Assembly (NCBI RefSeq): GCF_003334385.1
Contig: NZ_QOWN01000100.1
From: Escherichia coli
GTDB lineage: Bacteria > Pseudomonadota > Gammaproteobacteria > Enterobacterales > Enterobacteriaceae
Length of the DNA stretch: 2,335 bases
Direction: 5' to 3' (one strand)
In this document: positions 198 through 2,335 of the stretch, piece after piece
Layout of the letters: each line of letters starts with the position of its first letter
Position numbering within the stretch: position 1 is the first letter of the stretch
The notes under the pieces: generated by a model
Databases searched by the model: none
Told to the model about the DNA's origin: nothing
Seen by the model: the letters and a program-made list of their open reading frames with translations, nothing else
Made by a program: the position numbers and the translations under genes

Positions 198-1859
198 TTA
201 TATGAAAAAAACCGCATATTCTTTCTTTTTCGGCTCCGGATTCAGGGACATCAGGGATACCGCATTGAAGAGCGCCATCAGCGGGTCAATTTTCCCCCGC
301 CCGCTGGCCTGTTTGGTAATAAGGATAGCGTTACCTTTAGGCTCCACCCGGGCATTGCCAACGCACCAGGCCATCAGTGGCTGACCACCATGCACCAGTA
401 CTCCCTCAGCCAGTTTGCGCTCGGTGGTTTTTATGGCCCCGCCCAGCTTCCAGCCCTGGCTTATCCCCACAACAATTCCGTCGGGGATCCCGGCTTCCGC
501 CAGTGAATCCAGAATCTGCCCCACACCTGACGGGTCAATACCGATATGCTCCAGTAACTCAGCCTCATGAATACGACGCACATACTCCGCCACTTCCGCC
601 GTGTCATCCCCGACCCGACGGACAATCGTCATGTCTCCACAGGCCACAAAATCCTGAAAACGGGATGCCTCACTCTTCCGTCTGACCACCGCGGTTTCAT
701 GCGCCCAGGCATGGCCCCAGCCCAGCCATTCGCGGGTTTCCCTGTCACGGCCAATCACGTACATTCCCAGCAGATCATCCAGGCCCCCGCCGTCAATCCC
801 CACCGTCACCACATCAGCGCGCTGCAGGATATCGTCCAGGCTGACGCGCCTGCCCTGCTGCTCCCAGAAATCCGCACCCGCCCAGCGGTCAGAACGCAGG
901 GCAAGACCAATTTCCACATTGGCATGTTTTGACATGAAGCCACGAAATGCTTCCTCACCAGCCTCCCGGGCTTTACGGTACTCCCGGTACAGAAAAGCCT
1001 CATCCACCGAATAACCGAGATTCGGATTGACCATGGCGAGGTTTTCCATCAGCAGGTGAGCCCCGCTTTCCACCATTTCAGGAGGGTGTTCAAATATCAC
1101 CGGCAGAAAGTGCGGATCATGAATTTTGCCGTCGCGCACATCCCGGGCGTACTGCAGTTTCTGTCTGAACACCCCGGCGGGCGGTTCATTCGACTGGGTG
1201 GTCGTATACACCACAAACCCTTCCGGGCGGGAGGCAAGGCCGCCTATGGCTTCACGTAACATGTCCTCCGCTTTGTACTGCTTGCCAAATAACCACAGTT
1301 CATCAATCAGCGTCCCCACGGACTTGATACCGGATACCGTATTCGGATCGGCAGCCACCACCTTAAGGGTGGTGTCCGTCACCCTGTGGGTGATGGTCCG
1401 GATATGTGTCTGCACCTGACAGAGGTCATCCAGATCATCGTCCCGTCGTACCATATCCCGGGCAGGGTTGAAGGCGTTGGCCGCCACCTCCACAGTCGGG
1501 GCCAGAATCGTGTAACCCGCCGCCTGCCGCCAGTTCAGTAACAGCGCCGTCATCATGATCCCGGCAGCCAGCGTGGACTTCGAGTTTTTCTTGGGGATAA
1601 GGATAAACACTTCCTTGATATGGCGCACACCGGTCTGCGCATCGTAGGAGCCAAACAGGGCCGCCACCAGGTCAAACACCCACGGTGCACAGGACTCCCC
1701 GAATGTCGGGCTACCCGGTGCATCCACAATTCGCAGTTGTTTAAAAATCGCCAGGGCATGTGCGGCCTCGTCCGGATAAATCGGATCCGGAATAATCGAC
1801 AGCCCCTTTTTCAGGCGCTCTGCCCAGTCCGGGCAGGCTGTGCTCCATACAGGTATCAT
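198..1859 (-). CDS. terL: Phage terminase large subunit (TerL): N-terminal ATPase domain plus C-terminal RNase H-like nuclease domain
   Basis: Uninterrupted 553-aa ORF. Walker A-like P-loop PKKNSKST (aa 89-96, nt 1572..1595), Walker B-like TLIDE (aa 183-187, nt 1299..1313), and a C-terminal region with acidic nuclease-type motifs (VTVGIDGGGLDD at about aa 351-362, then CGDM and VGDD). Length and domain order are typical of HK97/Terminase_1-type large terminases. GAGGG Shine-Dalgarno 6 nt upstream of the ATG. Stop TAA at 198..200. Confidence 0.92.
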   Translation of the reverse strand: MIPVWSTACPDWAERLKKGLSIIPDPIYPDEAAHALAIFKQLRIVDAPGSPTFGESCAPWVFDLVAALFGSYDAQTGVRHIKEVFILIPKKNSKSTLAAGIMMTALLLNWRQAAGYTILAPTVEVAANAFNPARDMVRRDDDLDDLCQVQTHIRTITHRVTDTTLKVVAADPNTVSGIKSVGTLIDELWLFGKQYKAEDMLREAIGGLASRPEGFVVYTTTQSNEPPAGVFRQKLQYARDVRDGKIHDPHFLPVIFEHPPEMVESGAHLLMENLAMVNPNLGYSVDEAFLYREYRKAREAGEEAFRGFMSKHANVEIGLALRSDRWAGADFWEQQGRRVSLDDILQRADVVTVGIDGGGLDDLLGMYVIGRDRETREWLGWGHAWAHETAVVRRKSEASRFQDFVACGDMTIVRRVGDDTAEVAEYVRRIHEAELLEHIGIDPSGVGQILDSLAEAGIPDGIVVGISQGWKLGGAIKTTERKLAEGVLVHGGQPLMAWCVGNARVEPKGNAILITKQASGRGKIDPLMALFNAVSLMSLNPEPKKKEYAVFFI

Positions 1860-2335
1860 CCGTTGCCCTCATTATCGTTATTCACCACCAGTCGGGGTGG
1901 CGGTGGCACCGCAAAACGGTTAGCCGCTTTTTTCGCAGCATCACCTTTTGCCGATTTTTTCCCGGTATCCCCTTTTTTATGGTGCGTGAACTGCGCCAGA
2001 CGCCAGGCCGCATCCAGTGCCAGTTTCGGATCAATGCAGAGGTTTTCCACCAGGATCCGCCCCATGGCTTTCACCGGATCGGGAAGACCATCCTCCATAT
2101 ATTCAATACCAGGAGACATCACCGCGGACGGTGGCATCTCCGGATTGTTTTCGTCCGGCTGTGGTATTGCAGCCGCCTCACGACGACGGGGTTTATCCTC
2201 CTGCTCTGATTTTTTCTGCCGGTAAACAGGAACCTCATCCACCTCCACCGTCTCGCATTGTTTACGGGCTATAAACGCAAGCACCTCCGGATCTTTTGCC
2301 AGCTGCGAGCCTTTAACCCTGGCGGTCTTCGCCGA
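1856..2335 (-). CDS. Putative terminase small subunit (assigned by position only); 5' end lies beyond the right window edge; Lys/Ala/Pro-rich low-complexity C-terminal tail
   Basis: The minus-strand frame is open from the window edge (2335) to stop TGA at 1858..1856 with no in-frame stop upstream of the track's first codon. That codon (2284..2282) is GTG, not ATG, with GGAG immediately adjacent (0-nt spacer), so it is unlikely to be the true start. The stop overlaps the terL start (ATGA), the classic terS-terL arrangement. The protein itself has no motif I can assign to a known TerS family from memory. Confidence 0.5.
   Translation of the reverse strand, partial: SAKTARVKGSQLAKDPEVLAFIARKQCETVEVDEVPVYRQKKSEQEDKPRRREAAAIPQPDENNPEMPPSAVMSPGIEYMEDGLPDPVKAMGRILVENLCIDPKLALDAAWRLAQFTHHKKGDTGKKSAKGDAAKKAANRFAVPPPPRLVVNNDNEGNG
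1866..1870 (-). promoter_or_regulatory. Ribosome-binding site (GAGGG) for terL, embedded in the 3' end of the upstream gene
   Basis: Plus-strand ccctc at 1866..1870 is GAGGG on the minus strand, with a 6-nt spacer to the terL ATG at 1859..1857. Confidence 0.4.

Follow-up and report, generated by a model that had tools for sequence, protein, structure and literature searches.

The locus described here is a 2,335-nucleotide (nt) stretch of Escherichia coli DNA (assembly GCF_003334385.1, contig NZ_QOWN01000100.1), referred to below as the window, which carries part of the packaging genes of a prophage. Its central gene is terL (198..1859, minus strand), which encodes the complete terminase large subunit of 553 amino acids. 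Upstream of it on the same strand lies terS (1856..2335), the gene of the terminase small subunit, present with its 3' 159 codons and stop codon and running past the window edge. The two co-directional protein-coding genes are joined by a 4-nt stop/start overlap, the tetranucleotide ATGA (1856..1859, minus strand), in which the start codon ATG of terL (1859..1857) overlaps the stop codon TGA of terS (1858..1856). This junction, and whether the translation of terL is coupled to that of terS across it, is the subject of the present analysis.

The window matched 1260 complete E. coli records at 90-99% identity; they come from 1255 of 5426 genomes, in which several copies are usual. Matches were also obtained in 94 phage records, mostly of Stx1- or Stx2-converting lambdoid phages such as BP-4795. 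The window is a BP-4795-like lambdoid prophage with packaging genes of the HK97 type. In BP-4795 (NC_004813, Stx1-converting) the corresponding genes are ORF54 and ORF55; the DNA is 96% identical over the whole window and TerL is 99.3% identical, while the gene ends, the 4-nt ATGA overlap and the sequence upstream of it (GAGGGCAACGG) are the same as in the window. For the best E. coli match as well as for BP-4795, RefSeq and GenBank annotate terS and terL with a 4-nt overlap and give terL the same ends as the window's open reading frame (ORF). The overlap is therefore already known, being annotated alike in BP-4795 and in more than 1000 E. coli genomes. Only point differences separate the window from BP-4795 and the E. 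coli equivalents; the best E. coli match, 98.4% identical, carries the terS tail allele NEESG (GAGGAAAGC) in place of the window's NEGNG.

Homology and RefSeq annotation agreed with the initial annotation that the two ORFs are terS and terL. The extent of terL was given concordantly by the ORF, by Pfam, PHROG and PDB matches, and by a RefSeq coding sequence (CDS) with identical ends. Its product matched Pfam TerL_ATPase over residues 63-224 (E 2.1e-11) and TerL_nuclease over residues 276-535 (E 9.3e-10), as well as PHROG 7622 (E 1e-152) and PHROG 9 'terminase large subunit' (E 1e-146). The only PDB match was 6z6d 'Terminase large subunit' (E 9e-10, residues 84-534), which we take to be the TerL of HK97. 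With an N-terminal ATPase and a C-terminal RNase-H-like nuclease (PF03354 and PF20441), as in the Terminase_1/HK97-like family, the window's large subunit is by these sequence matches an HK97-like TerL. A Walker-A-like P-loop, PKKNSKST (residues 89-96, 1572..1595, minus strand), was picked by eye inside the TerL_ATPase match and judged against the general Walker-A consensus GxxxxGK[ST].

The upstream frame was open right to the window edge. From the full-length homologue in the best E. coli match, the complete terS product has 187 amino acids (564 nt), and its start would fall at about position 2419. TerS matched PHROG 641 'terminase small subunit' with E 1.8e-68 for the full protein (residues 1-183) and E 8e-51 for the part within the window, and residues 2-57 matched Pfam Terminase_2 (E 2e-8). 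Three PDB chains named 'terminase small subunit' gave marginal matches (E 0.19-0.78). NCBIfam returned no family for TerL or TerS at E <= 0.001, though PGAP names both. Judged by homology, and so beyond its position alone, the upstream gene is TerS.

Every coordinate that the initial annotation had given for the junction was right when read from the sequence. On the minus strand the terS frame ends with GTG AAT AAC GAT AAT GAG GGC AAC GGA TGA, and the terL frame begins with ATG ATA CCT GTA TGG AGC. A GAGGG resembling a Shine-Dalgarno (SD) motif (1866..1870, minus strand) lies in the last terS codons, GAG GGC (Glu-Gly), and is separated from the ATG by the 6-nt spacer CAACGG (1865..1860). The duplex of GAGGG with the 3' end of 16S rRNA (ACCUCCUUA) had an energy of -6.1 kcal/mol. 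The presence of an SD motif within terS, at a workable spacing from the start, was likewise correctly noted before; such a motif is a common though not essential trait of coupled gene pairs. The TerS tail occurs within E. coli as ...NDNEGNG (GAGGGCAAC) and as ...NDNEESG or NQNEESG (GAGGAAAGC), and both alleles have the GAGG core and CGGATGA in common. All eight E. coli and phage copies compared, down to about 89% local DNA identity, retained the GAGG core, inside terS, and CGGATGA.

Several results placed the start of terL at ATG 1859, where the initial annotation had put it. A TGA in the terL frame (1869..1871, minus strand) lies 9 nt upstream of this ATG, which is the first start codon after it; therefore terL has no start further upstream, and no long TerS-TerL frameshift fusion can be made. 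We also considered that terL starts downstream, at GTG codon 45, 61 or 65 or at ATG codon 102 or 103, in which case there would be no overlap. Candidate codons do exist in frame (GTG codons 45, 61, 65, 78 and 84; ATG codons 102 and 103), mostly with poor SD matches, and the SD-like energy at GTG codon 61 is -6.4 kcal/mol. The N-terminal alignment speaks against such a start. In 77 distinct TerL N-termini, the most distant from a Bradyrhizobium phage at 37% identity, conservation begins at residue 5 with W-x-T-x-C-x-D-W, continues with SIIP and then with IVDAPGSPTFGE; in the window this first strongly conserved block of the family is W-S-T-A-C-P-D-W, codons 5-12 (1824..1847, minus strand). Residues 5-60 are among the best conserved of the whole family, and in nearly all 77 the protein starts 1-4 residues ahead of the block, with the start codon at most about 2 codons from the residue-1 equivalent. 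TerL residues 1-224 aligned with positions 1-223 of 224 of the PHROG 7622 profile, and PHROG 11206 also aligned from residue 1. The ATG codons 102 and 103 cannot be the start because the Walker-A-like loop precedes them. PGAP and the depositors agree on ATG 1859. The downstream starts were dropped on the N-terminal conservation, a start at any of them being very improbable. We conclude with high confidence that ATG 1859 is the true start of terL and the sole credible one.

A programmed -1 frameshift at the junction, giving a TerS-TerL fusion, was also considered, since terL lies in the -1 frame relative to terS. The terL-frame TGA would confine the shift to GGG CAA CGG, which contains no slippery heptamer of the form X XXY YYZ, and the downstream region has no stable structure. 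Rfam gave no match at the junction at E <= 1; its only hit in the window was the sub-threshold archaeal snoRNA sR44 (880..923), which at 19 bits against a gathering score of 45 was dismissed as chance. Relatives, moreover, have terS and terL in various frames and with gaps. The fusion was rejected on the in-frame TGA and the missing heptamer, and we regard it as extremely improbable; like a downstream start, it is effectively excluded.

The overlap itself is real but generic, and nothing in it is out of line with expectation, ATGA overlaps being the way in which bacterial and phage genes are most commonly joined. Of the 76 pairs of neighbouring same-strand CDSs in BP-4795, 15 (20%) share exactly 4 nt, 13 with ATGA, one with GTGA and one (52667..52670) counted from coordinates only; the 15 include exo/bet, O/P, P/ren, several head-tail genes and orfA/orfB of IS3. 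A spacing of -4 is also the commonest among unidirectional gene pairs in E. coli (PMC10666635). Because one co-directional BP-4795 pair in five overlaps likewise, the overlap does not support the TerS assignment, for which it had been cited earlier.

To see how the junction behaves in the wider family, it was compared among 80 IMG/VR loci with TerL 63-99% identical and five phages at 37-59%. Junctions were anchored by homology and deduplicated to 72 distinct sequences; one locus (L056, -1656) reflects a mis-anchored TerS match, and another (L039) has no start in the retrieved DNA. The results showed that 61 of the 72 distinct terS-terL junctions (85%) fall within -4..+5 nt, compared with 24 of 76 same-strand pairs (32%) genome-wide in BP-4795. 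The commonest form was a gap of 3 nt (n=25), followed by the 4-nt overlap (n=12), a 1-nt overlap (n=10), abutment (n=6) and gaps of 1, 2, 4 or 5 nt (together n=8). SD energies at the 72 junctions were modestly stronger than those of coding sequence taken as background, with medians of -4.7 and -3.0 kcal/mol (Mann-Whitney p ~5e-7). Among the IMG/VR relatives, only the clade whose TerL is 89% or more identical has ATGA throughout; sister loci at 82-84% already carry ATGA, TAATG, +2 and +3. A comparative check of whether the overlap is conserved had been proposed earlier, and its outcome is divided: the overlap is fixed in the close E. coli clade, but its ATGA form varies beyond it. Nor is ATGA, as had been suggested, what is expected of a terminase pair, for in most relatives the genes are 3 nt apart, overlap by 1 nt or abut, and HK97 has a 6-nt gap. 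A fair summary, on sequence comparison, is that close juxtaposition of terS and terL is a strong family tendency, while the ATGA form and a strong SD are not.

The initial annotation had read the overlap as a sign of translational coupling. Coupling of terL to terS by termination-reinitiation is plausible, and we infer that it probably takes place. Both genes would be carried on the phage late transcript; a consensus scan, which is not transcript mapping, found nothing promoter-like in the window and, at the junction, nothing resembling a terminator. A ribosome would end terS at the TGA and restart on the overlapping ATG, aided by the GAGG 7 nt upstream, and terL synthesis would thereby be tied to terS synthesis. 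In the centroid fold the ribosome-binding site (RBS) and the ATG are unpaired, and the 101-nt region from -50 to +50 of the ATG is not unusually stable (z = -1.0). Coupling by an upstream ribosome that unmasks the RBS was dropped on this result, as the RBS is not concealed in a hairpin; coupling, if it takes place, would accordingly rely on reinitiation and not on hairpin melting. The arrangement resembles the coupled ATGA/TGATG pairs described by Huber et al. 2019 (PMC6728339) and Huber et al. 2023 (PMC10666635) in its co-directional genes, its 4-nt ATGA overlap, its SD motif in the upstream gene and its two products, which are subunits of one complex. The ATGA configuration is described there as the commonest in E. 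coli and as usually coupled. In E. coli reporter tests, four of five overlapping pairs were strictly coupled, and removal of the SD lowered reinitiation in four of five, a large contribution (PMC6728339). Coupling falls steeply with distance, and short overlaps are over-represented in genes whose products are subunits of heteromeric complexes (PMC10666635). On whether coupling has been measured for terminase genes, the literature yielded only generic remarks on overlapping phage genes.

Several observations weigh against coupling or reduce the force of the comparisons. An energy of -6.1 kcal/mol is matched or bettered at 19% of minus-strand positions of the whole G+C-rich window and at 20% of its start-like triplets, and because so many positions pair equally well, GAGGG alone is weak evidence. 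Among the relatives, a canonical 4-mer core (GGAG, GAGG or AGGA) is found at only 10 of the 72 junctions, compared with 7% in the background. The ATGA is labile, since sister loci at 84% identity differ (ATGA in L016, TAATG in L015). In several relatives the two genes stand 44-567 nt apart or have another gene inserted; in a Xanthomonas phage the terS-terL gap exceeds 300 nt, and in Acinetobacter phage fLi-Aba02 and a Bradyrhizobium phage a further gene separates the two. The relatives share ancestry, so the junction counts and p-values overstate independence. Finally, the RBS is not sequestered, so that a free 30S subunit could initiate de novo, as reported for bioBF.

These observations lead to the alternative that the overlap reflects genome compaction only, with terL initiated de novo at its own SD regardless of terS translation. 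The accessible RBS and ATG and the suitably spaced GAGG are what such initiation would use. The bioBF pair, the one of the five tested E. coli overlapping pairs that began de novo (PMC6728339), is a precedent, and as the uncoupled exception it belongs to the same published set as the coupled pairs. Because terS and terL stand 44-567 nt or one gene apart in some relatives, a terminase can function without coupling, and the many ATGA overlaps of BP-4795 show that this form is common by default. Against it stand the other four tested pairs and the 85% of distinct family junctions within -4..+5 nt, well above the 32% genome-wide in BP-4795. On this balance we consider independent initiation unlikely, while giving it serious weight. 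The arrangement thus permits coupling without proving it, as four of the tested pairs were coupled and bioBF was not, and coupling by reinitiation is the reading that we favour.

A further, rather doubtful idea may be put forward tentatively. The tight junction might have been selected so that TerL is made in cis, beside TerS that has just been released, and the E. coli TerS tail (DNEGNG/DNEESG) might have evolved to carry the GAGG SD, shifting the junction from the family's commonest +3 to -4. If this were true, cis synthesis of TerL would fix the stoichiometry of the subunits or allow co-translational assembly of the holoenzyme.

The surroundings of the terminase genes were compared with those of related phages. 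In BP-4795 and in PGAP-annotated E. coli prophages the order is HNH endonuclease, a gap of about 290 nt, terS, terL, protease/capsid and portal; in the best E. coli match and BP-4795 the HNH endonuclease CDS, some 290 nt ahead of terS, falls outside the window. Vibrio and Bradyrhizobium relatives likewise have an HNH gene beside their terminase genes. HNH endonucleases adjoining the terminase genes have been reported for cos phages of the HK97 type (PMC9410871, PMC3592412), and the adjoining HNH gene found here places the module among the HNH-associated cos packaging modules of that type. In HK97 (NC_002167) gp2 is a detectable relative of the window's TerL, and terS (gp1) likewise lies immediately upstream of terL. 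The two differ in that gp1 and gp2 are separated by 6 nt, where the window has an overlap, and in that HK97 has the portal gene after terL, where the window type has the protease/capsid gene. Compared with HK97, the window TerS has a Terminase_2-type N-terminus. The order terL-portal-protease is found in HK97 and in relatives with at most 71% TerL identity, and the E. coli clade has terL-protease/capsid-small ORF-portal; this differing gene order points to module rearrangement within one TerL family.

Downstream of terL, the 63-nt spacer before the capsid gene (135..197, minus strand) contains a hairpin with a T-run that resembles an intrinsic terminator (146..173, stem-loop 173..156, minus strand; GGACCGC-TGCG-GCGGTTT followed by TTTTATTTT). 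It sits directly after the terL stop codon and ahead of AGGAGG, the SD of the following gene. In relatives whose TerL is 82-84% identical, a stem-loop and T-run occupy the same place with another stem sequence (GCCCGC..GCGGGTTTTTT), and the hairpin looks functional because its position is kept in them despite the changed stem. Its features suggest either a terminator that transcription would pass under Q antitermination or a hairpin for mRNA stabilisation or processing within the late operon. A putative terminator is also annotated within the head operon of HK97. The next gene (1..134, minus strand; 1938 nt in relatives) is annotated as major capsid protein or 'major head protein/prohead protease'. 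It starts with GTG (134..132) after AGGAGG (145..140), while an ATG at 137..135 runs directly into TGA. Judged by sequence, its N-terminus (…ITGIASTPSPDRDGDILEPEGAE) looks like a prohead-protease domain, which would mean a protease-capsid fusion.

Some further observations concern annotation of these genes elsewhere. In the Stx2-converting phage Stx2a_F349 (AP012530.1), an IS629 insertion interrupts terL, and the annotation there is that of a pseudogene. Downstream of the window, the portal gene of the closest E. coli match (retrieved stretch 1..1985) is recorded as a pseudogene with a frameshift, and in the BP-4795 annotation (also retrieved stretch 1..1985) there are two 'portal protein' CDSs, ORF58 and ORF59, which overlap by ATGA. 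Behind the split portal there could be an annotation problem that recurs, a genuine split or programmed frameshifting. Two complete E. coli chromosome records, NZ_CP107142.1 and NZ_CP184111.1, begin exactly at the A of the terL ATG, and in chromosome records starting at this ATG the annotated terS CDS spans the record origin, with its end at position 4. These record starts are probably a re-orientation artefact of assembly, made by a tool that orients on terL; the artefact is harmless and splits the prophage across the two ends of the record.

Taken by itself, the terS/terL junction confirms the gene boundaries of a packaging module that is very common in E. coli prophages, and in this sense it matters little. 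The overlap should not be taken as grounds for naming an upstream gene of unknown function TerS. In recombinant expression of the terminase, or in engineering of Stx-type phages, the native junction should be retained or terL deliberately given an RBS of its own. More broadly, the junction is one more case of the tendency of genes for subunits of one complex to abut or overlap.

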